DNA from: Chitinophagales bacterium
Lineage (GTDB): Bacteria > Bacillota > UBA5301 > DYFA01
Assembly (NCBI GenBank): GCA_050260095.1
Contig: JBLNBQ010000180.1
Coordinates: forward strand, 1-62,895
DNA length: 62,895 nt
Direction: 5' to 3'
Shown here: piece after piece, positions 9,367 to 55,684 of the stretch
Layout of the letters: every line of letters begins with the position of its first letter
Numbering within the stretch: position 1 is the first letter of the stretch
Notes under the pieces: generated by a model
Told to the model about the DNA's origin: nothing
Databases searched by the model: none
What the model saw: only the letters and a program-made list of their open reading frames with translations
Made by a program: the position numbers and the translations under genes

Positions 9367-9379
9367 TAGAGGTCCTCCT

Positions 9380-9718
9380 TCAAGCGAAAGCCAGGCGGTA
9401 GGCCCAGAAGGTGCCGGCGAGGAAGGCTGCGCCAAGCAGGACGTGCTTGGCCACCAAGAGCCGGAGCTTGACCTGGTCGCGCCCCGCCACCCCGGGCTCG
9501 CGGTAGGTGACCGCCCGCACGGCGCCCGTGAGGAGGATGATCGCCAGCGACACCAAGAGCCACCGGAAGGCCAACCCAAGGACGGGCCGGCCGGCGGCCA
9601 ACAGGCCAGTCGCGGCCAGAACCCGGCGCAAGCCCGCCGAGACCAGCACCAGGGCGAGCCAGAAACCGGTGGCCAGGTCGTGAACGAAGTTGTTGACGAT
9701 GATCGCCCCGTCGCGCAT
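9380..9718 (-). CDS. Small integral membrane protein (3 predicted helices), function unknown
   Basis: MRDGAIIVNNFVHDLATGFWLALVLVSAGL...LLVSLAIILLTGAV...LLGAAFLAGTFWAYRLAFA. Its ATG overlaps the TGA of the upstream LuxE-like gene (ATGA), and it sits 13 nt upstream of the radical SAM gene. Confidence 0.6.
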   Translation of the reverse strand: MRDGAIIVNNFVHDLATGFWLALVLVSAGLRRVLAATGLLAAGRPVLGLAFRWLLVSLAIILLTGAVRAVTYREPGVAGRDQVKLRLLVAKHVLLGAAFLAGTFWAYRLAFA

Positions 9719-11820: not shown

Positions 11821-13739
11821 GGGGCTTCGGGCAGGGGCGCGCGGCGGGCCAGGACGACCCGGTTGCGCCCCTGGGCCTTCGCCCGGTAGAGCGCCTCGTC
11901 GGCCCGGGCGACCAGATCGTGGGCGGTCGACGCCTCGTGCGGGAAGGACGCCACGCCCAAGGAGACGGTGACCCGCCCGAGGGGCTGGCCGTCATCGCCG
12001 GCGAGGCTCAGCCCGGCCACGCCCCGCCGGATGCGTTCGGCCACCACCAGGGCCTGGCTGGAGGGAGTCTCGGGCAGCAGGACGCAGATCTCCTCCCCGC
12101 CGTAGCGGAACACCTGGTCGACCGTGCGCACGCTGTTGCTCACCACCTCAGCCACCCGCCGCAGCACCACATCGCCGCTCAGATGGCCGTAGAGGTCGTT
12201 GTAGCGCTTGAAGTGGTCGATGTCCAGCATGAGGAAGGACAACTCCCGCCCGTAGCGCTCGGCCCGCAGCACCTCTTCCGACAGGCGGGCCTCCAGGCGC
12301 CCGACGTTGTACAGGCCGGTCAAGGCGTCGCGGACCGACCGCTCTTCCGCCTCTTCGTGCAGGCGGGCGTTCTCGATGGCCATCGCGGCATGGGTGGCCA
12401 GGGTCCAGAGAAAGGCTACATCGTCCTCGGCGAAACCCGAGGGACCCTCCCTGACGCAGGTGAGCGCCCCGATGCGCTTCGTTCCCGTCACCAGCGGGAC
12501 GCAGAGACAGCACCCTCCCCCGCCCGGCTCGCCGCGTCCCACGGCCGCGTGCGCCAGTTCCGTGACCTCCGCCGTCAAAAGGCTGGGCGGCCCGTAGGTG
12601 GCGGCGACCGCCAGCCCGCCGTGCTCCCGCGCGAGGTGCAAGACTCCCGCTTCCGCGCCCAGGAAGAAAGTGGCCTCCTGCAACACGGAGGAGAGGACGG
12701 CCTCGAGTTTGAGCGATTCCGTGAGGCGCCGTGAGATCTTGAGCAGGGCTTCCATCTGGTCGGCCTTGTGCCGGACGCGCCGGAACCGGCCGGCGTTGGC
12801 GAGGGAGATCACGGCCAGGCCGGCGAAGGAGGCCAGCATCGCCACGTCGTCCCAGGTGAACCGGACGGCCTCCCGGAGACTCCCCACCGCCAGCACGCCC
12901 GCCGGCGTCCCTTCGAAGAGAAGCGGGACGACCACCGCCGACTGAAAACCACGGCCCGGCCAGGCCGCGACCGTTTCCGCCCCAGCCGGTCCCGCCGCAG
13001 CCTCTTCCGCTTGCAAGAGCACGGGGCTGCCGGTGACCAGCGGCCGCCCGAGCGGCCCTTCGCCCGGCACGATGGTCCGCTCTTGCTCCGTGAACGGCAG
13101 GTTGAACGCGTCCACCACCCGGAAGGCGCCCGCCTCGGCCTCCCACAGCGCGAGGCAGCCGGCGGACCCGCCCAACAGCTCGACCGCACTCTGCACGATC
13201 TTGGGCGAGAGTTCCGGCACGTCCGCCACCGGCAGCACGGCCTGCGAGAGGTCGAGCAGCGTCTGTTGCACCTGCAGGCGCCGTTCCCGCTCCCCCACCA
13301 GTTGGTTCCGCTCGAGGAGCACGGGCAGCAGGTCGCAGAGCGTGCGGAAACCGGGGCGCTCCACGACCCGCAAACCGTCGCGCCCCGCCGCGAACAGGGC
13401 GACCACCCCGAGCAGCCGGTCACCCAGGCAGAGCGGCGCGGCGGCCGACCGCCCGTCGTCGGCGAAGGTCGGCCGGCGGAGTTCGGCCGCCCGCGCCGCC
13501 AGGCCACCCGGCGGCGACTCGAGCCGCTGGCGACCCAAGTTGCGGATGACGAGCAGCGGGAGGCCGTGCGACGCCACCATCCGCAGCTCATGCTGGGGTG
13601 GGTCGTACAGGAAGAGGGCCCCGGCGTCGACCGCGGCGGCTTTCACGAGATAGGCCAGCGCGCGGCGCATGAAGACCTCGGGGCTGTGCCCGGTGGAGAG
13701 TTCCCGGAGAAAACCCGAGAGCAGTCCGGATTCGTCCAT
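11772..13739 (-). CDS. Multi-GAF sensor diguanylate cyclase (GGDEF)
   Basis: C-terminal RDALTGLYNVGRLE...LLMLDIDHFKRYNDLYGHLSGD...FRYGGEEICVLLPET...VSLGVASFP...ADEALYRAKAQGRNRV, with a GGEEI active site. Three GAF-like segments lie upstream. Start is the ATG at 13739 (MDESGLLSGF). The remaining 466 N-terminal aa of ORF 11772..15137 are antisense to a real gene. Confidence 0.85.
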   Translation of the reverse strand: MDESGLLSGFLRELSTGHSPEVFMRRALAYLVKAAAVDAGALFLYDPPQHELRMVASHGLPLLVIRNLGRQRLESPPGGLAARAAELRRPTFADDGRSAAAPLCLGDRLLGVVALFAAGRDGLRVVERPGFRTLCDLLPVLLERNQLVGERERRLQVQQTLLDLSQAVLPVADVPELSPKIVQSAVELLGGSAGCLALWEAEAGAFRVVDAFNLPFTEQERTIVPGEGPLGRPLVTGSPVLLQAEEAAAGPAGAETVAAWPGRGFQSAVVVPLLFEGTPAGVLAVGSLREAVRFTWDDVAMLASFAGLAVISLANAGRFRRVRHKADQMEALLKISRRLTESLKLEAVLSSVLQEATFFLGAEAGVLHLAREHGGLAVAATYGPPSLLTAEVTELAHAAVGRGEPGGGGCCLCVPLVTGTKRIGALTCVREGPSGFAEDDVAFLWTLATHAAMAIENARLHEEAEERSVRDALTGLYNVGRLEARLSEEVLRAERYGRELSFLMLDIDHFKRYNDLYGHLSGDVVLRRVAEVVSNSVRTVDQVFRYGGEEICVLLPETPSSQALVVAERIRRGVAGLSLAGDDGQPLGRVTVSLGVASFPHEASTAHDLVARADEALYRAKAQGRNRVVLARRAPLPEAPQAKTVTTSSMGRLGR

Positions 13740-13928
13740 TTGCCGCCTGCCTTGGGGGATGCGCGCCCCATCAGAATAGCAATAAGTTCCACCAACGCCA
13801 GCCCGTTCCTGCTGCCGGCTCCGGCCCCTCCGCTGCCGCCACTTCCCACAAGGTGACTGCTCCAGCGAGGCGTAATCCCACCGTTTAGCTGCACCTTCGC
13901 GTTCCCGATCCGTATTATGGCATGAGGA

Positions 13929-15203
13929 GTGGCACTTGCGGTGCGGGGAAGATCGCTGCGTACGATCGTTGGATTGGTGATCCTGGGTGCAGGAGCGGCA
14001 GCCGCGGCGTTCGCGCTTCCCGCGGCCCAAAGCCTCAGGGACGACACGGCCCGTCCGGCCGGCGCCGGCAGGCAGGTCCGCCTTGTGACGCCGCCGGTGG
14101 GCGCCCTGCTCGACCCGCAGCGGCCCGACCGCGCCGGCACGCTTCACCTGGCGGCGCCCACCTCGCCGTATGATGCGACGAGGCTGCTCGTACCCCGGCC
14201 GTTCCAGGGGGAACGGGTCGAGCGCCCGAATCCCGTCCACGGCATCTACCTCACCGGGTGGGTCGCCGGCCTGCCCGGCCGCGTCGGTGCGCTGCTCCGG
14301 CTGGTCGACGAAACCCCGCTCAACACCATGGTCATCGACGTGAAGGATGACGAAGGGACGCTCACCTACCGCATGGCCCTGCCGCCGGGCGTAGGTCCCG
14401 GCATCGAGCCTTCCCTCAAGGTCGCCGACATCGACGCCCTGCTCGCCACCTTGCGCGAGCACGGGGTCTACACCATCGCCCGGGTGGTCTCCTTCAAGGA
14501 CCAGGTCCTGCCGAAGGTCCGCCCCGACCTGGCTGTCCAAAAGCCCGACGGCTCCGTCTTCTGCGACCGGGCCGGGTTCATGTGGGCCAACCCCTATTCC
14601 CGGCAGGTCTGGGAGTACAACGTCGCGGTGGCGAAGGACGCCGCCTCCCGCGGCTTTGGCGAAATCCAGTTCGATTATGTGCGCTTCCCGGACGTCCCCA
14701 AGTCGCTCAGCCTGGTCTTCCCGGGCCAGGACGGGCGGAGCAAGGCGCAGGTCATCCGGGACTACCTGGCCTACGCGCGCCGGGAACTCCTGCCCTACGA
14801 CGTCAAGGTTTCGGCCGACATCTTCGGCCTGGTCACGACCGTGAAAGACGATCTCGGCATCGGGCAGAACCTGGAGGCCGTCGCTTCGGTGGTCGACTAC
14901 CTGAGCCCGATGACCTATCCTTCCCACTACGCCCGGGGCGAGTTCGGCCTGTCCGACCCCGACGCCGTCCCCTATGAGACGGTCTACCTCTCCCTCCGGG
15001 ATGCGGTGCGACGGCTCAGGGCGGCCGGGCTGGACGCCGGGCTCGTGCCGTGGCTGCAGGACTTCTCCCTGCGCCACCGCTATGGGCAGGACGAAGTGCT
15101 CGCCCAGGTCAACGCGGCGGCCGACCTCGGCATCCACGACTGGTACCTCTGGAACCCGGCGAACCGTTACACGGCGGCGGCGCTCCAGCGCCTGGCGAGG
15201 TGA
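13929..15203 (+). CDS. Putative secreted TIM-barrel glycoside hydrolase (DUF4015-like)
   Basis: Signal/anchor LRTIVGLVILGAGAAAAAFALPAAQ. Then VHGIYLTGWVAG...TPLNTMVIDVKDDEGTLTY...FMWANPYSRQVWEYNVAVAKDAASRGFGEIQFDYVRFPD. The GTG at 13941 may be the real start. Confidence 0.55.
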   Translation: MALAVRGRSLRTIVGLVILGAGAAAAAFALPAAQSLRDDTARPAGAGRQVRLVTPPVGALLDPQRPDRAGTLHLAAPTSPYDATRLLVPRPFQGERVERPNPVHGIYLTGWVAGLPGRVGALLRLVDETPLNTMVIDVKDDEGTLTYRMALPPGVGPGIEPSLKVADIDALLATLREHGVYTIARVVSFKDQVLPKVRPDLAVQKPDGSVFCDRAGFMWANPYSRQVWEYNVAVAKDAASRGFGEIQFDYVRFPDVPKSLSLVFPGQDGRSKAQVIRDYLAYARRELLPYDVKVSADIFGLVTTVKDDLGIGQNLEAVASVVDYLSPMTYPSHYARGEFGLSDPDAVPYETVYLSLRDAVRRLRAAGLDAGLVPWLQDFSLRHRYGQDEVLAQVNAAADLGIHDWYLWNPANRYTAAALQRLAR

Positions 15204-18901: not shown

Positions 18902-20269
18902 TCACATCGTCAGTTTCCCCTGCGGGGTGCTCACGATCTTGAGGATCCGCTCCTCGCGGCCGGTCTTGGCGTTCACGTAAACGTAGTACGGCTCGTTGTC
19001 CTGGGTGCACTTGAACTCCCAGGCGAGCGATTCTTCGCCCGCCACCTCCCGCGGGATCACCGTGAGCTGGGTGCCCTGCACCGTGAGCCCGTCCTTCAGC
19101 TTGGCCCGGGCCTGCTCGGCCGTGATGGTCGGAGTCAGATCGGCTTTGCTGCGGGTATGGTGATTGGTCAGGTACTGCAGGGCGTCGAAGCTCAAGACCT
19201 CGCCGCGGTCGAGGGCGACGGCCACCTTGACCATGTCAGGATAGATCAGCACGTTGTTCTCCACGGCCACGTAGGGGAAGGTCACGACGCCGCCCACCGT
19301 CTGGGCGTAGGATTCCCGCAGTTCCGGCAGGTCCAGCTTGCGGAGGAAGTCCCGGGCGGCCCGCGCGGCGTCGGCGGAACTCAGCCGCGGCGGTCCCGGC
19401 GGGCGGGTGTTCACCGCCCAGACGACGTGGCCGCCCTTCTGCGAGACGTCGGCCGCCATCCGCGGCAGATCCCCGCCGGTCGGGACCAGGTCGAAACCGT
19501 AGGCCACCAGCCGGCCCCGGGTCATCCCCTTGAACCGGGCGCGGTAACGGGCGGGGTCGGGCGTCAGGCGCAGCGCCCGGCGGGCCGCCTCGGCCTGGCT
19601 GACGTTCGATCCGGTGAGCCCCCGCGGCGAGAGCTTGTCGATCCGGTCGGAGAACGGGCCGTCGTACTGCAGCGTCGGGTAGTCGGCCATCGCCCGGTCG
19701 ACGCTCTTGAAGTTGTCGGTGACGGCGTTGCCCCCGGGGCTATCGCTCTGGCCCACCCGCCGCGGGTTAGGCGTCCGGTTGGTCAGCCAGTTGTAGTTGC
19801 CGGCGGCCGCCATCCGCTGCAAGCCGTGCAGTTCTTTGCCGAGCGCCACCGCCTGCCGGCGCAGCCGGGTCATGGTGGCCAAGTCTCCGTCGGTCATCTT
19901 CTGGCCGCCGGCCCGCTTGCGGGCCATCACGTAGGAGAAGTCGCCGACCTGGGTCAGGAACTTGCTGGTGCGCATGAAGGCGCCGCTGCGCACGGGCAGC
20001 CGTGAGAGCGCCGCCTTGCCCAGGTTGGACTGCCGCCACACGTCGGTCAACTGGTTTAGAATCTGATCGCTGCTGCTGGCGACCGTCCCCTTGCCGAGCC
20101 TGACCTCGACGGCGTCGACGTAGCTGACCAGGTCCAGGAAGGCCGCGTTATAGGTCGCGTTCAGGCGATTGGAGATGTAGTCGGCCCGGCGCCGCTCAGT
20201 GTTCCCCCACCAGATGGCCGTCAAGGCCACGATCGTGAGGAACCCGACGGCCACTTTCCAGGTGCGCAA
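18902..20269 (-). CDS. ypeB: Germination protein YpeB (PepSY-domain, SleB partner)
   Basis: N-terminal anchor, NRLNATYNAAFLDLVSYVDAVEVRLGK...SKFLTQVGDFSY, and C-terminal PepSY-like repeats. It lies immediately downstream of a SleB-type hydrolase gene, as in Bacillus sleB-ypeB. Confidence 0.85.
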   Translation of the reverse strand: MRTWKVAVGFLTIVALTAIWWGNTERRRADYISNRLNATYNAAFLDLVSYVDAVEVRLGKGTVASSSDQILNQLTDVWRQSNLGKAALSRLPVRSGAFMRTSKFLTQVGDFSYVMARKRAGGQKMTDGDLATMTRLRRQAVALGKELHGLQRMAAAGNYNWLTNRTPNPRRVGQSDSPGGNAVTDNFKSVDRAMADYPTLQYDGPFSDRIDKLSPRGLTGSNVSQAEAARRALRLTPDPARYRARFKGMTRGRLVAYGFDLVPTGGDLPRMAADVSQKGGHVVWAVNTRPPGPPRLSSADAARAARDFLRKLDLPELRESYAQTVGGVVTFPYVAVENNVLIYPDMVKVAVALDRGEVLSFDALQYLTNHHTRSKADLTPTITAEQARAKLKDGLTVQGTQLTVIPREVAGEESLAWEFKCTQDNEPYYVYVNAKTGREERILKIVSTPQGKLTM

Positions 20270-20284
20270 GAGAATCCTCCTTCC

Positions 20285-20767
20285 TCACAGGGCGAAGACG
20301 TGGTTGCCGATCTGGCGAATGATCGTGCGGGACCAGATCCACGGGCTCACGGGTTTCGACGGGTTCCAGAAGAAGGTGCAGCCGTACGTGGGATCCCAGC
20401 CGCTGACTGCGTCGATGGCGGCCCGCCGCTCCGTCCAACTCGGTTCACGCTGCCAGATCAGACCGACCTCCACCGACTCGAACGCCCAGGGCTGGTAGAT
20501 CACCCCGGCGATCGTCCCTGGGAAAGAGGGGTTCTTGGTCCGGTTGAGCACCACCGCCCCGACGCCCACCTGCCCTTCGTAGGGTTCCCCCTGCGCCTCG
20601 GCGGCGATCAGCCGGGCCAACAGGTCGATGTTGGCCCCGGCGTCGGGCTGCGCCCGGACGTAGGTCCAGTACTGGAACTGAGGGATCAGGTAGTTCTCGG
20701 TCACCACACAACCGACGAATGCGAGCACCATGAGCAACAACAGGACAAGGGAACGGCGCATGGTCAA
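20285..20767 (-). CDS. sleB: SleB/CwlJ-type spore cortex-lytic hydrolase, catalytic domain only, lipoprotein-like signal
   Basis: LLARLIAAEAQGEPYEGQVGVGAVVLNR...FPGTIAGVIYQPWAFE...IGNHVFA matches Hydrolase_2. The N-terminus MRRSLVLLLLMVLAFVGC resembles a lipobox. No peptidoglycan-binding domain is present. Confidence 0.85.
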   Translation of the reverse strand: MTMRRSLVLLLLMVLAFVGCVVTENYLIPQFQYWTYVRAQPDAGANIDLLARLIAAEAQGEPYEGQVGVGAVVLNRTKNPSFPGTIAGVIYQPWAFESVEVGLIWQREPSWTERRAAIDAVSGWDPTYGCTFFWNPSKPVSPWIWSRTIIRQIGNHVFAL

Positions 20768-21240: not shown

Positions 21241-21672
21241 TCACTGGCTGAAGTACCGCCGGATGAGCCCGTCGAGCGACTGGGCGTGGCGCGCCTCGTC
21301 GCGGGCCGCCTCGTCGTAGACGTCGTGGATCGCGTCGAGGTTGTTCTGGCTGGCTTTGCCCGCCCACTCGGCCTTGCTTTTGCAGGAAGCCTGCTCCTCC
21401 TTGACCAGGCGCCGCAGGTTCTCGGCCGTGCTGTTGTCGATCCGACCGTTCAGTTCGGCGAAGCGGGCGGCGTGCCAGGCCTCATCCCAGGCGATCTTCT
21501 CCAAGGCCAAGGCGACCTCCGGGTAACCTTCGCGCTCCGCCTGGCGGGCGCAGGCCAGGTAGTGGGCGACCTCCATCCCTTCCCCCTTGTAGCTGTCGTC
21601 CACGGGCTGTTCGAGCGGGGTCGCCCGGGCCACCCCGAGCTTTTCCTGCCGGGCCAGATCCAGACCGGTCAT
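21241..21672 (-). CDS. Ferritin-like/rubrerythrin-family diiron protein (no rubredoxin domain)
   Basis: EGMEVAHYLACARQAEREGYPEVALALEKIAWDEAWHAARFAEL and a second EARHAQSL helix pair (ExxH motifs). ATG at 21672 follows GGAGGCA. It lies 80 nt downstream of the cytochrome operon on the same strand. Confidence 0.7.
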   Translation of the reverse strand: MTGLDLARQEKLGVARATPLEQPVDDSYKGEGMEVAHYLACARQAEREGYPEVALALEKIAWDEAWHAARFAELNGRIDNSTAENLRRLVKEEQASCKSKAEWAGKASQNNLDAIHDVYDEAARDEARHAQSLDGLIRRYFSQ

Positions 21673-21752
21673 CGTTGCCTCCACGCATGCTGCCTCCTTC
21701 ACAGGGGTATTCTCCGCCGGCGGCCCGGGAGGTATGCGGACGGCGCCCCAGG

Positions 21753-23594
21753 TCAGAGGGTGTGGCAGCTCGTGACGCAGTCGGCCTTCTGCCAGTTGCC
21801 CGAGCCCGGCAGGTACGGCTGGCCCAGTGCGTCCCGGGCAAAGGCGATCTTCGACCCGGCGTTGTACGGGTACGGATCGGTCCGTTCCACCAGCATGGCC
21901 CGGTTCTTGTAGCCGTGGGGCACCCCGGCGTGACAACTGGTGCAGGCGACCTGGTGGTACGGGGCGCCGTGTAGGCTGGTACCTCCCGGACTGCGAAAGC
22001 CGGTGTTGCTGCCCAGCCCGTCGAGGTAGAGGGCCGGATCGTGGCACTTGAAGCAGAGATGCCCGCTTGTTCCCGGGCTCCCGGTGGGCGCCGAGGCGGC
22101 GGGCGCGGACGCCCCTTGATGTACCCAGGGAGCTTTCAGGATAAAGGGATTCTCCGAGCCATGCGGTCCAGACGGACCGTTCCCCGCAGCGCCGTGACAA
22201 TCGCAGCAGCTGAGAACAGTCTCCCAGCTCCACGCCTTGCCGGTTCGGTCCGACCCACAGAACGCACCCGGCCACATCAAGTCGCGATGGGCGTGCCCAC
22301 TCACCACGGCGTGCAAGCCCCCGTTGTTTGGATTGAACGCCACAGCGGGGCTGGTCTGAGGTGAGGCGGAAAGTCCATCAAGGGTACGGCGAGAGGGCGA
22401 AACCGGCGGATTCAGCCCATAACTATAGCCCGAGTGACACTTGAAGCAAAGCTGGTATTCGAAAGAGATGGAGTTGCTCTCGACACAGGAGGGCTCCGAC
22501 CAGGGAAGTCCCAAGTACTGGACGCTCACTCCGCTCGCCCCCTGCAGCGCGCCGAACACACCCGGAGCTGCCGGGTGAGACTGCGCTGCGACATGTGGGT
22601 TATGGCAATCCACGCACTCGGAGTGGCGATCCAGGCTCGGCACAGAACGCCTGGTTTCACGGGGATCGTGCGGAGCAAGGCCCAGTTCATGACGGGCTGG
22701 CATGGCCTGAGCCGCCGCGATGTTGGTGCCGCACTCTCCGTTATGGCAGACCAGACAGCCATCGGAACCCACTTCCCGCCCGAGCCGCTCGGGTTGGCGC
22801 GCTTGGTGCGGTTTATGGCAACTGAGGCACGCGGCCTGCGCCACCGTGCTGAAGGAAGGGCGCAAGCCCAAACTGGCGGGGATCGGCCGCTCAGAAGCCA
22901 AGGCGTGCCCGCTGCGGTCCCAGCCCGCCACGACGTGGCAGGTTATGCACAGCGTCCCCCCGTAAGTCCCGGTCCGGTCGACCGGTCGCTTGACCAGGAA
23001 CGGTTCAAATTCGGGATCATGGGGCGAGTGACAGGTCGTGCACTGGACCCGCCCCGCCTCATCCAGCCGGACCGGATCTCCAGGCTGGGGCGGTCGGAGT
23101 CCTGGCTTGGCTGCGGGAAAAGGTCTGCTCACCGGATGATCATCGCGGAGGTCCGTTTCAAGTCGGGCGTGGCCCGGTGGAACAGCGCCCCGCACATCGA
23201 CATTCGCCATGTTCCGATAGCCGTTACAGAGCTCACCCAAGGCGACCGTACCGTCATGACAACTGAGGCAAAGGGTGGAAACCCCATTGGGTTGCTCGGG
23301 CGGGGAGGCCACCGTGCTGCTCTGATAGACTTCGTAGTACTGAGAGCTGAGCTTGTGACTGAACAGGTAAGCCTCCTGATTTGCGTGATGTGGAACATGA
23401 CAAAACACGCAGACCTGCGTCTCCGTGTAGGAAGTGATGGGCCCCATCCCTCCGACCGAAAAGTCGTGTTTCGAGCCGCGAATGGTTCCCGCTGACATCG
23501 TCGGGCAGCTGAATCCTGCAAGCGCCGCGGTCAGAGCGGCCACGGTCGCGAGCCGCATCAGGTGACAGGCGGGTCGAGTGCAGAAGGACTCCAT
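21753..23594 (-). CDS. Large secreted multiheme c-type cytochrome (11 CXXCH plus 1 CX3CH)
   Basis: Heme motifs: CVFCH, CLSCH, CTTCH, CITCH, CLSCH, CLVCH, CVDCH, CFKCH, CCDCH, CFKCH, CTSCH, and a terminal CVTSCH. The N-terminal ~200 aa are paralogous to the two tetraheme proteins (GSKHDFS...VCVFCHVPH...CLSCHDGTVAL...DDHPV). Hydrophobic signal MRLATVAALTAALAGFSC. Start is uncertain (23594 or 23558). Confidence 0.85.
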   Translation of the reverse strand: MESFCTRPACHLMRLATVAALTAALAGFSCPTMSAGTIRGSKHDFSVGGMGPITSYTETQVCVFCHVPHHANQEAYLFSHKLSSQYYEVYQSSTVASPPEQPNGVSTLCLSCHDGTVALGELCNGYRNMANVDVRGAVPPGHARLETDLRDDHPVSRPFPAAKPGLRPPQPGDPVRLDEAGRVQCTTCHSPHDPEFEPFLVKRPVDRTGTYGGTLCITCHVVAGWDRSGHALASERPIPASLGLRPSFSTVAQAACLSCHKPHQARQPERLGREVGSDGCLVCHNGECGTNIAAAQAMPARHELGLAPHDPRETRRSVPSLDRHSECVDCHNPHVAAQSHPAAPGVFGALQGASGVSVQYLGLPWSEPSCVESNSISFEYQLCFKCHSGYSYGLNPPVSPSRRTLDGLSASPQTSPAVAFNPNNGGLHAVVSGHAHRDLMWPGAFCGSDRTGKAWSWETVLSCCDCHGAAGNGPSGPHGSENPFILKAPWVHQGASAPAASAPTGSPGTSGHLCFKCHDPALYLDGLGSNTGFRSPGGTSLHGAPYHQVACTSCHAGVPHGYKNRAMLVERTDPYPYNAGSKIAFARDALGQPYLPGSGNWQKADCVTSCHTL

Positions 23595-23619
23595 TCCACT
23601 CTCACACTCCCATGGAGGA

Positions 23620-24444
23620 TTAGTCCCTCCGATAGTCGAGACGGCGGTGACAACCACAAAGGCATCCACCGCCGGTGGGAGTCTCCGTGAACACGATGGG
23701 CAACTCCCACTGGCCGAAGGTCACGCGCCTTCGAATGAGGTGGGGCTGCTCCGAACCATGGGCCTCGTGACATACCCAACATGAGCGACCTTTGTTCGGG
23801 TCATTCACGTGGAAGTAGTGGTCACTCTTTCGCCCGTTCCGAAAGTTGGTCGCGTCTTTTGTTTCGGATGCCACAACCAAAGCCTCGGGATGACACTTGA
23901 AGCATAGCGCGAAGCGCCGGCTCGTGAAGGGGGCGTAGAACCGGCTGTCGAAGGGAGCCTTCAGCAGTTGTCGGTACGGCGAGTTGTGCGCTTCATGGCA
24001 AGCGGTGCACTTCCCTTCGGCGACGGGTCGATGGACAGAGTTCCGGGTCATCTGCTGGGCAATCTTCGGGTGGCACTTGGTGCATAAAACCCCTTGCGGT
24101 TGCTTCAGCAAGGCCGGGTAGGCTGATTCATGTGGGTCGTGGCAGGTGGAGCACGGCTGCTCCCGCACCACCTGATGCCTCACCCCGACCGCCATCTGAT
24201 CCTGAAGGTCGCGGTGACAAAAGAAGCACAGCTCCCGTTCAGGCGCGGCCAAGCCATGGGGGCGTGCGGCATCGTGCGCCACATGGCAGACATCGCAACG
24301 GCCGGCAGAATACGGCCCGTGCCTGAAGGTCCCTCCGTTCTGATTCGCTGCGGGCGCCCCTGCCGCTTCGGCCCGCCCCAAGGCCAGTAGCGCCAAGAGA
24401 GTGAGCCAAAGGGGGAACCGGCGGAGGCAGGCCACTGATCCCAC
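23620..24444 (-). CDS. Secreted octaheme-type c-type cytochrome (7 CXXCH plus 1 CX3CH), cytochrome c3/c7-like repeats
   Basis: CDVCH, CFFCH, CSTCH, CTKCH, CTACH, CFKCH, CWVCH and a C-terminal CLCGCH. Repeated C..CH.(P/A)H.S.Y..LL spacing. Signal VACLRRFPLWLTLLALLALGRAEA. GTG at 24444 follows GGAGGGG. Confidence 0.85.
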   Translation of the reverse strand: MGSVACLRRFPLWLTLLALLALGRAEAAGAPAANQNGGTFRHGPYSAGRCDVCHVAHDAARPHGLAAPERELCFFCHRDLQDQMAVGVRHQVVREQPCSTCHDPHESAYPALLKQPQGVLCTKCHPKIAQQMTRNSVHRPVAEGKCTACHEAHNSPYRQLLKAPFDSRFYAPFTSRRFALCFKCHPEALVVASETKDATNFRNGRKSDHYFHVNDPNKGRSCWVCHEAHGSEQPHLIRRRVTFGQWELPIVFTETPTGGGCLCGCHRRLDYRRD

Positions 24445-24461
24445 CGGAACACCCCTCCAGC

Positions 24462-25259
24462 CTACTTCTTGTGGCAGGTCAGGCAGAGCGCGCTTCCGTC
24501 GTTGGAACAACGGAGAAACGGCCGGAAACCAGGGTCGTGCACGGCGTGACAGGAACCGCACTCGACCTTGTTAGAGTACAGCCGAACCCCGTTTGGCCAG
24601 AGCTCTCGAGCCGGAACCGGCTCAAATCGGTCGGCGTAAGTGGTCGGGTCGGGGTAGTTGACCCCCACCGGGTGGTCATCGGTCAAATCCTGGGTCAGGT
24701 AGTGACCAGAATAGTCCGCCGCGGCACCGATGGGACTCGCGTCGTGGCATGAAACGCCGCAATCCCAGAACGCGTTGTTGCTCTGACTGGCGGCCGCCAT
24801 CTTCCCGTGGAAAGGAACCTCGGTGGGGTACGCCGGGTTCGTCCACCCGCCTGGGTTGGGCCGACCGCCGGGACGACTCATGGGCATTCTGATCACGGAG
24901 TCGACCGCGATCGTGCCGTCATGGCATGATAGACACATCAAGGACGAGTTGCCGGGTGCACTCGGTGCGCTGATCATCGTCCAACTCCGGTAGACCGGGT
25001 AGCTCCCGGGATCGGGAAGGCTGCGGTTCCAGAGCATCGTCACCTGGGTGGATGCGTTGTGGGGAGTGTGGCAGTAGACGCAGACCTGATTATAGTCGTT
25101 ATAGGTGTTCCAGAAGGTCATGCTTGGAGACTGCATGGCATGCGAGAGATCGTGCAGCGAGCCGACGATGGTCGAAGCCTGAGCAACCATTGAACAGGCA
25201 ATGATGATGGTGGACACCACAGTAATCAGATGCAAAGGCAGCCTGTGCTGAGAACGCAA
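24462..25259 (-). CDS. Secreted tetraheme-type c-type cytochrome with doubled-CXXCH C-terminus (paralog of 28117..28968)
   Basis: IVGSLHDLS...VCVYCHTPHNAS...LWNR...CLSCHDGTIAV...CGVSCH (CX3CH)...DDHPVG...CGSCHAVHDPGFRPFL...CLTCHKK. TTG start at 25259 lies 8 nt after AGGAGG. Confidence 0.85.
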   Translation of the reverse strand: MRSQHRLPLHLITVVSTIIIACSMVAQASTIVGSLHDLSHAMQSPSMTFWNTYNDYNQVCVYCHTPHNASTQVTMLWNRSLPDPGSYPVYRSWTMISAPSAPGNSSLMCLSCHDGTIAVDSVIRMPMSRPGGRPNPGGWTNPAYPTEVPFHGKMAAASQSNNAFWDCGVSCHDASPIGAAADYSGHYLTQDLTDDHPVGVNYPDPTTYADRFEPVPARELWPNGVRLYSNKVECGSCHAVHDPGFRPFLRCSNDGSALCLTCHKK

Positions 25260-25275
25260 CTGAACCACCTCCTGA

Positions 25276-27228
25276 TCAAAAACAGCGTCTGACCCCGAAC
25301 TCCAATCTCCCTCGGGCGGCATCCCTGCCTAGGTCCTCTTCAAGTCCAGCCTCCAGGTTCACGCTCAACAAGCCAAGGCGGTAATCGGCCCGGAAGTCGG
25401 TCGTCAACTGATGCCGGGTCGCATTCACGAAGTTGCGGACGTAACCCAGCGACGCAGAGAGTCTCAATCCAGGCCTTGGGTTGGCGAGGGCTTGGATCCC
25501 AGTCTGAACTGCCTTGTCCTCCACTGCCCGACCAGCCTCTCGATCAGTCCGCACCAGGGCCTGTGCAAAACCTTTGAGCCGGAAGAACCCCTCCTCGACC
25601 AACTGGTATTCGCCCCGTACCACGTCCCTGCGCAGAGCGGCATCGGAAGACTTCTCCCGATCACAACGCCAAGTCAACGTGAAGGGGTCCCGCGTGTAGA
25701 CGAAGGCCACGTTGGCCAGCCTGTTATGATCCTCCCGGTACACCGTGGTCGTGAGACTGAACGGGCCATCCGCCAATGCCAGTTGTTGGCTTGACCCATA
25801 ACTATTTACTATTCTGTTCCCTCGTTCCAGCGAATATTCGCGGTCGTGATAACTAGTGAGCCCGCAGCGGAAGGACAGCGTATCGGCCGTTGTGGAGGCA
25901 GTCAGGTTTCCCGTATAGGTGATTCGTTCGGAATCTCCAGCGGGGCGCTGGGTGTCGTAGCTCACTCGGACTTCCTTGATTGAGGGGTCGCCGCGCCAGA
26001 TGAGATCCACCGCGGGGGCCACGTCGTCGTTCACACCAAGGGGCAGCCAGAGTTCGTAATCGATGCCGCGGGTGAAGACGCGGTGACCCAACGAGACGCG
26101 GATGCTGTCAACCACGACGTTGGCACCCTGCAGCCGGGCTGGTCCCTCAGTGGTGCAGACGATCTCGCCCAGGACCGGCCGAATGATGTTCCCCTGCCCT
26201 CTCTCCGGCAGCCACCCTCCTGTTGCACCGAGAGTTAATCTCAGTGGACCTACGTCCCCATTCCACTGCAGTCCTCCTTCGGGTCCCAGCGCTTCCCGGG
26301 AGACGTCCCCGCTCTCGTAGAACCGTGCCTTTTCGCTCAGCGATCCCTGCCATCCTTTTCCCAGACTCGCGGTGGTGGAGACTTCGCCCTTGACCTCAGT
26401 TACCAGACGGCTCTCAACCCGAGTCCGGTTTGCTTCGAGCGTAAGCGTCGAAGCCCAGTTCTCTCGGTGCTGAAGATCCAGCGTCTCAGCCAGGCGAGTT
26501 TCCTCTCCAGGTCGATCGCCCTCGACCAGATTTCTTTGATAGGACGATCGCAGGTGGAGCAGGTCGTATAAGAAGTAATTGTCGAGCGCAGTCTTGAGCG
26601 TGCTCCCTTCAGCCGAATGCCCACTCAACCGGTCGAGCGCATACCGGCGATTCCACTCGAAGTCGAGTGTCGCGTCGCGTCCGAACTGCCGTCGATTGGA
26701 GAGCGCATAGTCCAGCGTCAGCATGTCTTCGGGGATCTCCGGATCTTCAAGTACCCGCTCGGTGGCCGTGTACCTGGCGGTGATGGGTTGTTGCCACGTG
26801 CCAAGCAAACTGAGAACACTCACCGTGTCAGTCTCCAGTCGGCAAGACGGACGGAAGTCCTGGTGCAGCTCCTCAGACTGGATACTCCCGGTGACGAAGG
26901 TGCGGACGAGAGAGAGCGGCAGGACCTGCAGGTCGATGTTTCCGTCCTTAACGCGCACGGACGAGGCAGTGGCCAGCCGGCCCTGTGCGTTCCAACTCAA
27001 CAGGTACGGATGGAGCGAGTACCCAGCCAGTTGAACGCTGAGGCCTTGCTCCGGCGACCCCGTCAGCAAACGTTGGTCACCTTGTCTCGCATAGGTCAAC
27101 GTCTCACTCAAGTCCAGGTTCGCGGTCCAGTCGCTGACCCTGAAGATCGGCCACGATTCGGCAACTGCTCCCAATTGAAGCACGAAGAGAAGCGCCACCA
27201 GCATGGCGAGGCCAGATCCCCGGCTCAT
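25276..27228 (-). CDS. Predicted outer-membrane beta-barrel (porin-like) protein embedded among cytochrome genes
   Basis: Signal peptide MSRGSGLAMLVALLFVLQLGAVAES. About 620 aa of amphipathic alternating-residue segments rich in Y/W/R/D/G/T/S (for example TLDFEWNRRYALDRL, STLTLEANRTRVESRLVTEVKGEVSTTASLG, LRLSASLGYVRNF, TTDFRADYRLGLLSVNLEAGLEE). C-terminal ...LEFGVRRCF ends in Phe. I recognised no cofactor or enzymatic motifs. Confidence 0.6.
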   Translation of the reverse strand: MSRGSGLAMLVALLFVLQLGAVAESWPIFRVSDWTANLDLSETLTYARQGDQRLLTGSPEQGLSVQLAGYSLHPYLLSWNAQGRLATASSVRVKDGNIDLQVLPLSLVRTFVTGSIQSEELHQDFRPSCRLETDTVSVLSLLGTWQQPITARYTATERVLEDPEIPEDMLTLDYALSNRRQFGRDATLDFEWNRRYALDRLSGHSAEGSTLKTALDNYFLYDLLHLRSSYQRNLVEGDRPGEETRLAETLDLQHRENWASTLTLEANRTRVESRLVTEVKGEVSTTASLGKGWQGSLSEKARFYESGDVSREALGPEGGLQWNGDVGPLRLTLGATGGWLPERGQGNIIRPVLGEIVCTTEGPARLQGANVVVDSIRVSLGHRVFTRGIDYELWLPLGVNDDVAPAVDLIWRGDPSIKEVRVSYDTQRPAGDSERITYTGNLTASTTADTLSFRCGLTSYHDREYSLERGNRIVNSYGSSQQLALADGPFSLTTTVYREDHNRLANVAFVYTRDPFTLTWRCDREKSSDAALRRDVVRGEYQLVEEGFFRLKGFAQALVRTDREAGRAVEDKAVQTGIQALANPRPGLRLSASLGYVRNFVNATRHQLTTDFRADYRLGLLSVNLEAGLEEDLGRDAARGRLEFGVRRCF

Positions 27229-28049
27229 CAGCCGCCCACCCCCTGCGGCGTTTCGTGCGCCTTATGACAGGCCAGGCAGTCACGCCTGCCCCGCCCGCCG
27301 TCACAGGAGAGTTGACCCGAGGGGTGGCAGCGGAAGCACAGTTCGGCGGTGAGTTGCTGCCTGAGCAGCCGAGCAGCTTGGGAGGCATGGGGATCATGGC
27401 AGGCCAGACAGTCACCGATCGCAACCGGGCCGTGAGTCACTCCCTTGCCATACTTGGGGTCGGTGTGGCACGTCCGGCAAAGATCTCCACGTTCGGACTT
27501 GAGGAAGAACCGGCGGTCGCCGCCGTGGGGGTCGTGGCACTTGGGGCACTTGCCCTCCCGGACGGGCTGGTGGATGGTGAACCCCTCCCGAAAACCGTCC
27601 CTGCCGCCCCAGGCGAAATCGTGGCAACCCAGACAAAGACTTGGCAGTCCGGCGGTGGTATGGTTGGGGTAGGCTGTCTCATGGGAAGTGTGACATCCTG
27701 AGCAGTCCCCGACTGCCACTGGCCCGTGCTGGCGGCTACGCTCGAAGTCGTTCTTCTTGTGGCAGAACCAGCAGAGGTCGGCTCCTTTGGCCAGGAGTTC
27801 TGACCCCTTGGTCAAGTCGTGGCACTTGTTGCACTCCATGTTGCGGTAGGGGGGGTGAACCTTCTTCTCATCCACCGGTACAGAGGTGTCCGTTTCCTCG
27901 ACCACGGCCTGGCGGGCTTTGAGCCCGTGTTTCAGTTCATACCGTTCCTTCGCCACAGCCAGATAGGCCGGGTCAACCAAGCATCCGGCCGAGGTCGAGA
28001 GGAGCAGTACCAACAGGGACATGAGCGCATACCGCCGCCAGACCTGCAT
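27228..28049 (-). CDS. Nonaheme c-type cytochrome lipoprotein
   Basis: Lipobox-like LLLSTSAGC. Nine CXXCH motifs: CNKCH, CWFCH, CSGCH, CLGCH, CPKCH, CRTCH, CLACH, CFRCH, CLACH. Its stop overlaps the start of the barrel gene (ATGA). Confidence 0.85.
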   Translation of the reverse strand: MQVWRRYALMSLLVLLLSTSAGCLVDPAYLAVAKERYELKHGLKARQAVVEETDTSVPVDEKKVHPPYRNMECNKCHDLTKGSELLAKGADLCWFCHKKNDFERSRQHGPVAVGDCSGCHTSHETAYPNHTTAGLPSLCLGCHDFAWGGRDGFREGFTIHQPVREGKCPKCHDPHGGDRRFFLKSERGDLCRTCHTDPKYGKGVTHGPVAIGDCLACHDPHASQAARLLRQQLTAELCFRCHPSGQLSCDGGRGRRDCLACHKAHETPQGVGG

Positions 28050-28067
28050 GGAAACGTCCCTCCGTGG

Positions 28068-28103
28068 AAAACCAGGGCTGGAATCCGGCCGTCCCAGCCC
28101 TGG
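28068..28103 (-). terminator. Intra-operon hairpin/partial terminator after the first tetraheme cytochrome gene
   Basis: The minus strand reads CCAGGGCTGG-13 nt loop-CCAGCCCTGG followed by TTTT, between the stop at 28117 and the next start at 28049. Confidence 0.5.
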
Positions 28104-28116
28104 CTCATCAGTAGGA

Positions 28117-28968
28117 TTACTTCACGTGGCAGGAGAGGCAGAGCTTGGACCCGTCCATGGACTCCCGGAGGAACGGCCGCAGGTCGGCGGTGGCTCCCGG
28201 CTCATGGACGTTGTGGCAAGTGTCGCACTCCATGTACGCTGCACCTGTGCCGTTTTCAGTGGGACCGCCAACGCTGATACCGGTGCCGCCCCACAGCGGG
28301 AGCTTGGCCGGGTAGTTCGCGCCGTTGCCAGCGGTGTAGGTCCGGGTGCCGATGATGGTCGTTCCAACGAGGCCAACCGCCTGGTTGTTGTTGGTCCGCT
28401 CGTTCCGGTAGGCCGCGATGTAGTCGAAGCCGACCGGATGGTCATCGGCCATGTTGACGCCCAGGTTGGCGCCGCGGGTTGACAGGATCTTTCCGTCCGC
28501 TGTGACCACAGGCGAGCCTGACAAGAAGGCGCCCACCGTGGTATAGCTGGGATCAGGGCTCGTCACGCCGAAATCCATCTTCCGCTTGACCTGGCGGAGG
28601 GCGATGGTGCCGTCGTGGCAAGAGAGGCAGAGATCGGTGCTGGTTCCGCGGAAGACCCCGCTTCCGGTGCCACCCCATACGTTGGTATGGGTCTGATCGC
28701 CGCCGTCCAAGGTCCAGCTGGCGTATCGGCCCTCCGGCGCCCCGAACTTGCGGTTCCACAACGGACCCTTGGTGTCGGAGTTGTGCGGCGTATGGCAGTA
28801 GATGCAGACCTGCTTGTTGCCGTCGGCTCCATCGCTCCTCACGGTAGCGTCGCCAGAGGGGGACAAGTCGTGCTTGGACCCAACGATCGTGGCCCCGACC
28901 GCGCTGGAGAAAGAGAGCACCAGACTCGCCACCAGCACGAGGGTCAGAGTTCTCTTCACGTTCTTCAC
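28117..28968 (-). CDS. Secreted tetraheme c-type cytochrome with doubled-CXXCH C-terminus
   Basis: Signal KRTLTLVLVASLVLSFSSAVGA, then TIVGSKHDLS...VCIYCHTPHNS...PLWNR...CLSCHDGTIAL...DDHPVG...CDTCHNVHEPG...RPFL...CLSCHVK. Three in-frame GTGs sit in a 9-nt repeat. The second (28968) has the best spacing to GGAGG. Confidence 0.85.
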   Translation of the reverse strand: MKNVKRTLTLVLVASLVLSFSSAVGATIVGSKHDLSPSGDATVRSDGADGNKQVCIYCHTPHNSDTKGPLWNRKFGAPEGRYASWTLDGGDQTHTNVWGGTGSGVFRGTSTDLCLSCHDGTIALRQVKRKMDFGVTSPDPSYTTVGAFLSGSPVVTADGKILSTRGANLGVNMADDHPVGFDYIAAYRNERTNNNQAVGLVGTTIIGTRTYTAGNGANYPAKLPLWGGTGISVGGPTENGTGAAYMECDTCHNVHEPGATADLRPFLRESMDGSKLCLSCHVK

Positions 28969-29041
28969 GTTCTTCACCTCCTTATATAGGTCTGTGGGCC
29001 TGGGGTCGGGCCGCCGGTAGCCGTCCCCGTAAGTCCCCGGG

Positions 29042-30085
29042 TCAGTCGCTCCCGAGGAACTGGAAAACCTGCACCCGTGCGTTAAGCTGATCGACTACGT
29101 AGAGCCGGTTCTGGGCGTCGATGCACATCCCCGCGGGCAGGTGGAATTCGCCGGGCCCGGCCCCGCCGGCCCCGACGAAGAGCAGGAGCTGGCCTTGCTG
29201 GTTGAAGATCTGGAAGTTGTTGAACGCAGCGTCCACCACGTAAAGGTTCCCGTCGCTATCTAGCGCGGCGCCTCGCGGCCGGCTGAAACAGCCGGGCCCG
29301 TCACCGAGCTGACCGATCGCCTTGAGGAACTTGCCGTTCTGGTCGAAGACCTGCACCCGGAAGTTCATCGTGTCGACGATGTAGATATGATGGTTCTTGT
29401 CCACCGTCACGTTGGTGGGGTAGTTGAAGTACCCGTCTTTGTTCCCGTTGCCGCCGATGGTGGAGAGCGGCGTGCCGTCGGTGCGGTAGACCTTGACCAC
29501 GTGCCCCTTGGAATCAACCACGTACAACCGGCGAAGCTTGCTGTCCACCGCGATGCCGGCCGGATTCTTGAGCTCCCCCTCCTGTCCGACGGCCCTGACG
29601 GGCTCCCCGGCCCGGTTGAAAGCATAGACGCAGCGGGCTTCGGCGTCGGACACCCAGATGGTGTCCTCCTCCTCGTCAATAGCAACCCCAATCGGGACTT
29701 TGAGCTGAATGCGGCCTTTGACTCCGATCTTCCACGCCTTGCTGGCCTTCTTGTCGAACACCACGAGCGCCGGGTTCTTGCCGGTCTCCGTCACGTAAAT
29801 CCGGCCGGCCTTGTCCACCGCCACGCTGTACGGCTTCTCGAGTGCCACAGAGGGTGGCTGGGCCCCCACCAACAACTGCTGCAAAGCTGAACGCTTATCC
29901 GCGCCTATGTCCTTGGAAGTAGAAATGGCCTCCACCCACCGGATCCGCGGCTTCTCCGGCGGCAGGGGCCAGACGAGGTCTATCTTCTTGGCCGGGGTCT
30001 TCTCCGCGGCCAGACTGCCGGCGGCGCCCATCGTGAGAAGCGCCGCGAGGGTGAGAAGAATGAAGAACCGTGATCCCCGTGTCAC
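29042..30085 (-). CDS. Secreted six-bladed NHL-repeat beta-propeller protein
   Basis: Signal FFILLTLAALLTMGAAGSLAA. Six NHL-type blades: PYSVAVDKAGRIYVTE, PIGVAIDEEEDTIWVSD, PAGIAVDSKLRRLYVVD, PTNVTVDKNHHIYIVD, PRGAALDSDGNLYVVD, PAGMCIDAQNRLYVVD. GTG at 30085 follows AGGGAGGGA. Confidence 0.85.
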   Translation of the reverse strand: MTRGSRFFILLTLAALLTMGAAGSLAAEKTPAKKIDLVWPLPPEKPRIRWVEAISTSKDIGADKRSALQQLLVGAQPPSVALEKPYSVAVDKAGRIYVTETGKNPALVVFDKKASKAWKIGVKGRIQLKVPIGVAIDEEEDTIWVSDAEARCVYAFNRAGEPVRAVGQEGELKNPAGIAVDSKLRRLYVVDSKGHVVKVYRTDGTPLSTIGGNGNKDGYFNYPTNVTVDKNHHIYIVDTMNFRVQVFDQNGKFLKAIGQLGDGPGCFSRPRGAALDSDGNLYVVDAAFNNFQIFNQQGQLLLFVGAGGAGPGEFHLPAGMCIDAQNRLYVVDQLNARVQVFQFLGSD

Positions 30086-30332
30086 AGCCGTTCCCTCCCT
30101 GTCCTGGGCCCGCCCGCCCAAAAGCGGAACCCGCACGCAATAGTTCCGGCAATGGCTCGTCCTGGAAGCCACTCTTAATATAGTCAGTTGCTGCCGGCTC
30201 TATGCTCGCAAGTGCGGACAAGACTGGTCGGCCCATGCCCCGAAGCCCAAGGGTTCCATCATTCTACCTGCGTTATAGCGCTTAGCTGGGGAAGTCTAGT
30301 ATCAGCCCATGATGAAGGGAGGGAATCAAACG

Positions 30333-30659
30333 ATGGCTCAGGGTCAGAAGCGGAACCAGGCCCTGCTTCGCGGCGCTGCGAAGGGTCTCGACAACTTCAA
30401 GTACGAGATCGCGACCGAACTGGGGATCAACCAGGACTACAAGTCCGGATACTGGGGCAACATCTCGTCCCGGGAGTGCGGCGCCGTTGGCGGACACATG
30501 GTGCGCCGAATGATCGCGGCGGCCGAGCAGTCCCTCATCTCGCAGGCTGCAGCCAACGTGTCGCAGGCTTTCAAGTCCAACCTGAACGCCTCCTTGGGGA
30601 GCGCGGCCGGGTGGGAGTCGGACCTGAACAAGACTCAGGCGACCACGACCCAGTACTGA
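30333..30659 (+). CDS. Alpha/beta-type small acid-soluble spore protein with long C-terminal extension
   Basis: LLRGAAKGLDNFKYEIATELGI...SRECGAVGGHMVRRMIAAAEQ matches the two conserved SASP helices (K.EIA.E.G and G.VGG). ATG at 30333 follows GAAGGGAGGG. Confidence 0.85.
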   Translation: MAQGQKRNQALLRGAAKGLDNFKYEIATELGINQDYKSGYWGNISSRECGAVGGHMVRRMIAAAEQSLISQAAANVSQAFKSNLNASLGSAAGWESDLNKTQATTTQY

Positions 30660-55640: not shown

Positions 55641-55684
55641 CCAGATACCCCCCCACGTCAAGCCCGGTTCCCGGGCGATGCGTC

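Follow-up and report, generated by a model that had tools for sequence, protein, structure and literature searches.

To our knowledge, structures have been determined for few cytochrome nanowires, and the two OmcE filaments among these are from Desulfuromonadia: that of Geobacter sulfurreducens (7TFS) and the OmcE bundle of Desulfuromonas soudanensis WTL, which we take to be the 16-chain entry 9YUQ (the PDB code does not appear in the text of the preprint describing the bundle). The OmcE filament is described as having one His that serves as ligand to a haem in the adjacent subunit; the same inter-subunit His ligation is described for OmcS, and OmcS and the archaeal extracellular cytochrome nanowires (ECNs) have the same haem-chain geometry. 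Nanowire-type OmcE homologues are set apart by a large β-barrel and a β-propeller encoded nearby, and the minimal OmcE cluster comprises two multihaem cytochromes, one or more β-propellers, OmcE, and a large β-barrel (Petersen et al., bioRxiv 10.1101/2025.10.22.684050). OmcE homologues with this cluster context were reported from five phyla, Bacillota not among these, and the priming, termination, and anchoring of OmcE wires were left open in the same preprint. Here we analyzed contig JBLNBQ010000180.1 of assembly GCA_050260095.1, whose whole stretch of 62,895 nt is called the window in the following; the contig is also contained in the Logan runs SRR24035587/88. Positions 21753..30172 of the minus strand probably constitute an OmcE-family operon for extracellular electron transfer in an endospore-forming, high-GC member of the Bacillota.

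The operon consists of seven co-directional genes on the minus strand, running from 30172 to 21753 with short gaps or none, in the order NHL propeller, copy A, multihaem cytochrome, 650-amino-acid (aa) barrel, copy B, multihaem cytochrome, and fusion cytochrome. In the direction of transcription, the features are as follows.

29042..30172, minus strand: six-bladed NHL β-propeller that has a Sec signal peptide but lacks a lipobox Cys; 376 aa in the longest open reading frame (ORF).
28117..28968, minus strand: copy A, a tetrahaem OmcE-type cytochrome with four CXXCH motifs; predicted major filament subunit.
28068..28103, minus strand: stem-loop followed by four U, directly after the copy A stop codon.
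27228..28049, minus strand: multihaem cytochrome, MtrA/DmsE-like, 273 aa, nine CXXCH motifs, probable lipoprotein (…LSTSAG-C).
25276..27228, minus strand: predicted large outer-membrane β-barrel, 650 aa, with a signal peptide and the C-terminus ...RRCF.
24462..25259, minus strand: copy B, a pentahaem OmcE-like cytochrome with four CXXCH motifs plus CGVSCH.
23620..24444, minus strand: second multihaem cytochrome, MtrA/DmsE-like, 274 aa in the public gene call, seven CXXCH motifs plus CLCGCH.
21753..23594, minus strand: fusion cytochrome, 613 aa, 11 CXXCH motifs plus CVTSCH, with module C at its N-terminus.
About 22935..23537, minus strand: module C, the OmcE-like N-terminal domain of the fusion cytochrome, followed by seven to eight further haem sites.

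The start coordinates of copies A and B are well supported by AGGAGG ribosome-binding sites located 8 nt upstream of GTG 28968 and 8 nt upstream of TTG 25259, respectively. The coordinates given in an initial annotation of the window were correct, and the gene calls of public contigs agree for copy B (265 aa) and the fusion cytochrome (613 aa). Copy A is called there with 280 aa from a start 9 nt further in (28959), and the propeller with 347 aa from a start at 30085. For the second multihaem cytochrome, the longest ORF extends to 24561. The start of copy B lies 16 nt behind the stop codon of the barrel gene.

The initial annotation had pointed to an ordered signature common to copy A, copy B, and the N-terminal part of the fusion cytochrome. 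The alignment of the three modules confirmed it, with 49 invariant columns that include, in this order, T-I-x-G-S-x-H-D-x-S, VCxxCHxPH, CLSCHDGT, DDHPV, CxxCHxxHxP, PFL, and LCxxCH. In single-sequence searches of the PDB chains, OmcE (7tfs_A) was the best match of all three modules and 9yuq_N the second best. Copy A matched 7tfs_A over the full length with E = 4e-23 and 9yuq_N with 3.4e-16; copy B also matched OmcE over the full length (1.8e-24, and 7.4e-22 for 9yuq_N). For module C the values were 1.5e-20 and 1.5e-09, and residues 45 to 245 of the 638-aa ORF were aligned with residues 10 to 230 of OmcE. A family profile built from 120 homologues and searched against the same chains retrieved 7TFS with E = 6.2e-69 and the D. 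soudanensis filament 9YUQ with 5.9e-55, followed at great distance by MtrA (2e-5); the remaining cytochromes, OmcS aside, scored about 1e-3 or worse.

An AlphaFold2 model of copy A, built without haems, consisted mostly of coil with little secondary structure (mean predicted local distance difference test score [pLDDT] 71, predicted template modeling score 0.70). When this model was searched against the PDB with Foldseek, 7TFS was the sole significant match (E = 3e-9, probability 1.0; template modeling [TM] score 0.71 normalized to the target and 0.53 normalized to the query). Copy A is thus predicted to have the OmcE fold, a coil around a linear haem chain, and the comparison with 7TFS that the initial annotation had proposed was positive both by sequence and by predicted fold. 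The other relatives it had named fared differently. OmcS was not matched by copies A, B, or C in the single-sequence searches and was absent from the Foldseek matches of the copy A model; the family profile touched it in three short stretches, the best of them a match of 17 residues over a haem motif (E = 3.4e-9), which makes the comparison irrelevant. The archaeal ECNs (8E5F, 8E5G) were absent from the sequence and fold searches of the PDB, even at E <= 10. Kinship with OmcS or the archaeal ECNs was therefore rejected on the basis of the sequence, profile, and Foldseek searches.

Copy A contains exactly four CXXCH motifs and nine His residues. Eight His residues (H36, H62, H65, H121, H180, H255, H258, and H284) are invariant across the 120 homologues, and copy A has all of them; LWN73-75 is likewise invariant, as are the haem-binding Cys residues, with C283 nearly so (90% or more). 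The same eight His residues are kept in module C, and copy B has them together with a fifth site. OmcE homologues are characterized by four CxxCH motifs plus four further His residues (Petersen et al.), and the eight conserved His residues of copy A likewise match in number the ligands of four bis-His haems. Copy A and G. sulfurreducens OmcE are about 30% identical and agree in the order of their four CXXCH motifs and in the four additional His residues; the loops of copy A are longer and rich in Gly, Thr, and Asn. Cleavage of the copy A signal peptide is predicted at ...SAVGA|TIVGSKHD, which gives a mature protein of about 258 aa compared to 232 aa for the 7TFS chain (202 in the Foldseek entry). 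Cleavage 5 to 7 residues before the first conserved His is predicted for copy A, copy B, and the fusion protein alike.

The initial annotation described the locus as a duplicated tetrahaem module. Homology of the modules is borne out by the data above, but they are neither a local duplication nor all tetrahaem; the operon encodes one tetrahaem and one pentahaem form and a 12-haem fusion. Copies A, B, and C share only 31 to 38% identity with each other, and each is nearest to a different subfamily. The closest relatives of copy A are tetrahaem proteins in 112 of 119 cases. Copy B carries an additional motif, C167-G-V-S-C-H (CX3CH), between motifs 2 and 3, and 114 of its 117 closest relatives have five sites: 100 with five CXXCH motifs and 14 with four CXXCH motifs and CX3CH at the same position. 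The ten His residues conserved in this subfamily (H36, 64, 67, 113, 151, 172, 196, 238, 241, and 263) are all present in copy B, together with M154. The best 14 non-self matches of module C, from Bacillota, Acidobacteriota, and proteobacterial contigs, are without exception N-terminal domains of cytochromes of 550 to 930 aa with 10 to 12 haem motifs (38 to 59% identity). By these sequence relationships, the three modules are ancient paralogues representing three old subfamilies. A recent local duplication, or a coincidence of generic multihaem motifs with no relation to nanowires, could be suspected from the presence of three such genes within 7 kb and from the fact that Pfam recognizes only the generic families Paired_CXXCH_1, c7, and c3 in the modules. 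Such an origin is refuted by the low mutual identity, by the closer kinship of each copy to proteins of its own subtype in other phyla, by the full-length matches to OmcE at E values of 1e-20 or better, and by a profile score of 6e-69 for OmcE compared to about 1e-3 or worse for generic cytochromes and 2e-5 for MtrA; we consider it most improbable.

Fusion cytochromes of the module C type occur alongside small OmcE homologues on contigs that bear the labels Firmicutes, Acidobacteriota, Gammaproteobacteria, Margulisiibacteriota, and others. No member of this class was present in the sampled Geobacter-type clusters, and no description of it was found in the literature searched. Among about 85 sampled loci, a clean set of tetrahaem, pentahaem, and fusion genes occurred only in the window and in an orthologous locus on a related metagenomic contig, L156; another locus, L149, was scored as having two modules of the tetrahaem type and one each of the pentahaem and long types, and five sampled loci contained pentahaem and fusion cytochrome pairs without a tetrahaem gene. 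Long cytochromes with an OmcE module were seen in L001, L075, L101, L104, L108, L121, L130, L135, L147, L148, L154, and L158. The possibility that the fusion protein is a lipoprotein was considered and rejected: its 'FSC' is not kept in the orthologues, which show plain Sec cleavage sites.

The initial annotation had placed filament-forming cytochromes beside NHL propeller and porin-like genes, and this neighborhood proved to be real and conserved around OmcE homologues. The propeller of the window matches Pfam NHL with E = 1.5e-32 and DUF5128 with 1.8e-24. In 76 of 83 related loci, a homologue of it with 33 to 52% identity adjoins the OmcE homologue, mostly directly upstream; these loci include Geobacter hydrogenophilus and a Geobacter contig with a protein 78% identical to OmcE. 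The N-terminal motif LVWPLPPxxPRIxW, located just past the signal peptide or lipobox, is kept across phyla. In the window and in L075, L076, L077, L101, L120, and L130, it reads LVWPLPP(E/D)xPRI(R/E)W. Propellers of Geobacter have a lipobox Cys, whereas none is found in the three Bacillota versions (window, L156, and L075).

The two smaller multihaem cytochromes resemble MtrA, the cytochrome of the Shewanella MtrCAB complex (6R2Q). The protein encoded by 27228..28049 matched Paired_CXXCH_1 with E = 8.5e-45 and 6r2q_A with 2.4e-10, and that encoded by 23620..24444 matched Paired_CXXCH_1 with 2.6e-37, the MtrC/MtrF II-IV domain with 1.9e-10, and 6r2q_A with 4.1e-11. We take this chain, which is the cytochrome in the Mtr complex structure, to be MtrA; in the sequence file it bears the molecule name 'Cystathionine beta-synthase', apparently a labelling error. 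Both proteins also matched the DmsE family TIGR03508 (9e-24 and 5.5e-21, respectively), with scores of 84 and 75 bits that lie below the curated cut-off of 192 bits. Given their significant local similarity to 6r2q_A, they count as relatives of probably like function, though by this threshold not as members of the family. Homologues of both occur in Geobacter OmcE clusters. Unlike MtrCAB, the operon encodes no decahaem surface cytochrome of the MtrC/OmcA type, and OmcE-like proteins stand in that place.

The 650-aa protein belongs to no Pfam or NCBIfam family. A word-indexed search recovered only the protein itself, and an exhaustive search of 1.84 billion representative proteins retrieved only five relatives; four of these extend to the C-terminus, all with a terminal Phe and three with R-x-F. 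An AlphaFold2 model based on the 6-sequence alignment (pLDDT 74.5) contained about 30 long antiparallel strands. Foldseek returned 286 matches at E <= 1e-3, and the 50 listed were large outer-membrane barrels with TM scores of 0.2 to 0.4, mostly TonB-dependent receptors, LptD, and the pilus ushers FimD/PapC. The protein is thus predicted to be a large outer-membrane β-barrel, and it occupies the slot of the 746-aa protein ending in ...KLF that follows omcE in Geobacter clusters. Its size is similar to that of MtrB.

With a propeller, a predicted barrel, and multihaem cytochromes, the operon has the neighborhood used in the preprint to recognize nanowire-type homologues. It resembles the Geobacter OmcE cluster in the adjacent NHL propeller, the two MtrA-like cytochromes, the large protein with a terminal Phe, and a hairpin behind the subunit gene. 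It differs in gene order (propeller, A, multihaem cytochrome, barrel, B, multihaem cytochrome, fusion, compared to two multihaem cytochromes, propeller, OmcE, barrel in Geobacter), in a barrel about 100 aa shorter with no detectable homology, in the lack of a glycosyltransferase block behind the cluster, in the two additional OmcE-like paralogues, and in the host. The minimal cluster of D. soudanensis, whose OmcE subunit is homologous to copies A and B, also comes without glycosylation genes. Homologues do not conserve the loops that form the bundle interface in D. soudanensis OmcE (Petersen et al.), so that bundling cannot be inferred for the window.

The host was assigned to the endospore-forming Bacillota on the basis of spore genes that flank the operon: YpeB (6e-53), two SleB-type hydrolases, and an α/β-type small acid-soluble spore protein (SASP; 6.6e-25).

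18902..20767: YpeB and SleB-type hydrolase, flanking the operon.
30309..30659: α/β-type SASP, divergent from the NHL gene.
60049..61065: LysM-SleB-type hydrolase, flanking the operon.

The host thereby lies outside the five phyla of the preprint. In scans of genome contigs, the best match of copy A was a Margulisiibacteriota protein with 27% identity. Transketolase and a dehydrogenase subunit, by its sequence of the E1-β type, gave 59% matches over the full length to 'Bacillota bacterium', and a partial match with 75% identity was to a 3.7-kb contig labelled Syntrophothermus. High GC content, numerous GTG starts, and an outer membrane would suit Limnochordia, which is no more than a conjecture. 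No paper linking OmcE with Bacillota or Limnochordia was found in the literature searched, and the papers in which OmcE, Firmicutes, and nanowires all occur seemed unrelated by title and abstract. OmcE-like genes were present on further contigs of this kind. The Firmicutes metagenome-assembled genome GCA_017656135.1 has a simpler core consisting of NHL propeller, OmcE homologue, multihaem cytochrome, a 647-aa protein, and fusion cytochrome. A contig of Candidatus Frackibacter (Halanaerobiales) carries an OmcE-like gene a few kilobases from an NHL gene, a gene for a 690-aa cytochrome, and maturation genes of the ResB/CcsA type. Window 54090..55661 (minus strand) encodes a secreted 523-aa M48 peptidase, which by size and architecture resembles the BepA-type proteases of outer-membrane quality control and would weakly support that the host has an outer membrane.

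The GC content in the window ranges from 0.61 to 0.72, with 0.61 to 0.63 in the cytochrome operon compared to 0.66 to 0.71 in adjacent blocks; at third codon positions the corresponding values are 0.70 to 0.84 and 0.85 to 0.93. A recent horizontal arrival of the cluster was nevertheless rejected, because the deeply diverged contig L156 has it at the same chromosomal site, and for the same reason any transfer would have to be old. In L156, all seven genes recur in unchanged order, likewise flanked by the SASP and rubrerythrin genes, and the identities of the orthologues differ widely:

Best-conserved housekeeping neighbors: 78 to 82%.
Other flanking genes: 59 to 73%.
NHL propeller: 70%.
Multihaem cytochromes: 55% and 66%.
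Copy B: 62%.
Fusion cytochrome: 54%.
Copy A: 43%.
Barrel: 34%.

Divergence is fastest in the barrel and in copy A, the two proteins expected to be exposed at the surface, and judged from sequence the pattern is typical of such proteins.

The hairpin that had been noted behind copy A, the first cytochrome gene of the operon, does exist. It reads from 28103 to 28068 as CCAGGGCTGG-N12-CCAGCCCTGG-TTTT, with a 10-bp stem and a 12-nt loop, and its 81-nt context has a folding energy of -34.8 kcal/mol (z = -2.9). In L156 and L075, the OmcE-type gene is likewise followed by a strong hairpin, of unrelated sequence, and in three Geobacter-type loci the hairpin at this place is a canonical terminator with a run of 7 to 8 T. 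A hairpin in this position was seen in every locus checked and is thus conserved among OmcE loci. The one at 28068..28103 is likely a partial terminator or an mRNA stabilizer, and the conserved stem-loop fits a structural subunit that is expressed more highly than the genes downstream of it.

Taken together, the retention of all eight ligand His residues, the position as first cytochrome gene, the hairpin behind the gene, and a divergence much faster than that of its neighbors make copy A the likeliest filament subunit, and we think it probable that it forms OmcE-like filaments. A filament of copy B, or of copies A and B mixed, would be a "leaky" wire in which every pentahaem subunit exposes one haem to the solvent. 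Petersen et al. suggested that a group of "OmcE-like" proteins with five CxxCH motifs may be a novel nanowire family in which a haem is exposed, and in their AlphaFold models the extra haem lies at the surface and the OmcE haem chain is kept. Copy B resembles these five-haem proteins in length, motif order, and the position of the extra site; it differs from most of them by the CX3CH motif and by the co-encoded tetrahaem gene and fused 12-haem paralogue. Its five-site subfamily, the ten retained His residues, and the loci with pentahaem and fusion genes only would all suit a pentahaem wire. We nevertheless regard this as unlikely for the window, as the identity of copy B to its L156 orthologue (62%) far exceeds that of copy A (43%), and as copy B has neither a hairpin nor an intergenic spacer behind it (the gap to the next gene, taken as the 274-aa call, is 17 nt), and belongs to a type for which filaments have not yet been observed.

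For a filament of copy A, we propose the following mechanism. Copy A would be exported via Sec, receive four c-type haems, and polymerize head-to-tail outside the cell, as OmcE does. One conserved His, by our reading the one 7 residues from the mature N-terminus, would complete the bis-His ligation of a haem in the neighboring subunit, so that a continuous insulated haem chain would result. The hairpin would raise the level of the copy A transcript relative to the downstream genes, and the NHL propeller would act as a conserved assembly or anchoring partner. The two MtrA-like cytochromes and the 650-aa barrel would form a porin-cytochrome conduit, with the barrel doubling as a secretion pore or anchor. 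Copy B and the 12-haem fusion, which share the fold and the ligand set, would most likely be specialized subunits at the base, the tip, or a branch of the filament, or alternatively a second type of wire, and would link the filament electrically to the conduit. The direction in which electrons flow, the localization of the proteins, and the roles of copies B and C are inferred here.

A more elaborate form of this scheme is a self-contained nanowire machine of three paralogues in an outer-membrane spore-forming Firmicute, in which copy A would form the shaft, the fusion cytochrome would join the shaft to the conduit, and copy B would be a minor subunit; we put it forward as a rather speculative idea. 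The N-terminal domain of the fusion protein would then meet the first shaft subunit via the same His-haem interface and its C-terminal haem chain would plug into the MtrA-like/barrel conduit, which we consider a doubtful proposition at present. Similarly tentative is the assignment of copy B as a cap or branch point with an exposed haem next to an insulated copy A shaft.

A simpler explanation is that the operon encodes a conduit only. The OmcE-like proteins would then be monomeric or small-oligomeric cytochromes of the periplasm or cell surface that exchange electrons with the MtrA-like/barrel complex, and micrometre-long filaments would not be formed. MtrA-like cytochromes and a barrel suffice for a conduit, and the OmcE-like family is large (2,538 to 3,032 proteins at E <= 1e-5) with only two members proven to form filaments. 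Petersen et al. call OmcE-similar tetrahaem cytochromes widespread and analyzed only those near barrel and propeller genes. The operon shows just this neighborhood, however, and it has kept the eight ligand His residues, with the N-terminal one 5 to 7 residues past the signal peptide cut in all three paralogues; the rapid divergence of copy A also fits the exposed surface of a polymer. A conduit alone thus appears to us possible, yet clearly less probable than a filament of copy A.

Several further observations weigh against the filament. Polymerization of copy A is a prediction for which the match between His residues and haem ligands in number and the conserved N-terminal His are indirect evidence, and the AlphaFold2 model of the monomer is of medium confidence (pLDDT 71). 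The operon encodes a single propeller that is not a lipoprotein, whereas the minimal cluster of Desulfuromonadia has two propeller lipoproteins. A profile comparison of the barrel with the Geobacter barrel by hhalign gave a probability of 1.2% (5- and 30-sequence profiles), and comparisons with the barrels of about 80 OmcE loci by tblastn, hmmsearch, and hhalign yielded nothing convincing, so that position, size class, predicted fold, and the terminal Phe are all that the two have in common. That the host has an outer membrane is itself deduced only from the predicted barrel. The hairpin at 28068..28103 was not called by a simple terminator scan, due to the 12-nt loop and the presence of only four T. 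Finally, the physiological role of cytochrome filaments is reportedly itself a matter of debate (PMC11077965).

As homologues of nanowire cytochromes have already been claimed to be "ubiquitous", a specialist would find the homology unsurprising, and an OmcE nanowire cluster is a known kind of system. The new aspects are the host phylum, the single non-lipidated propeller, a barrel family with a handful of relatives, and three paralogues of differing haem number. The locus would extend the OmcE system to endospore-forming Bacillota. As the propeller is clearly orthologous and the barrel highly divergent, it allows the indispensable parts (the subunit, a propeller, MtrA-like cytochromes, and some barrel) to be separated from lineage-specific ones, such as lipidation, glycosylation genes, and the barrel sequence. 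The tetrahaem, pentahaem, and fused 12-haem forms side by side offer a direct test of whether they are alternative wires or the shaft, cap, and base of one wire. If the three-paralogue machine were true, it would answer how OmcE wires are connected electrically to the cell and how their growth is primed or terminated. The operon is compact (8.4 kb) and a candidate for expression in a heterologous host.

Some neighboring genes deserve mention. Directly downstream of the operon lies a rubrerythrin gene (21241..21700, minus strand), whose position is kept in L156; it may be co-transcribed with the operon and serve as protection from oxidative stress. About 7 kb from the operon, 11772..15137 (minus strand) encodes a protein of 1121 aa with multiple GAF domains and a GGDEF diguanylate cyclase domain, and a control of biofilm or electron-transfer genes by cyclic di-GMP is conceivable. 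The stretch 7885..11154 (minus strand) contains genes for a LuxE-like acyl-protein synthetase and for a radical SAM enzyme of the B12-binding type. In the Candidatus Frackibacter contig, a B12-binding radical SAM gene also adjoins the OmcE-like gene (L170, 8879..10315), which may be a coincidence.

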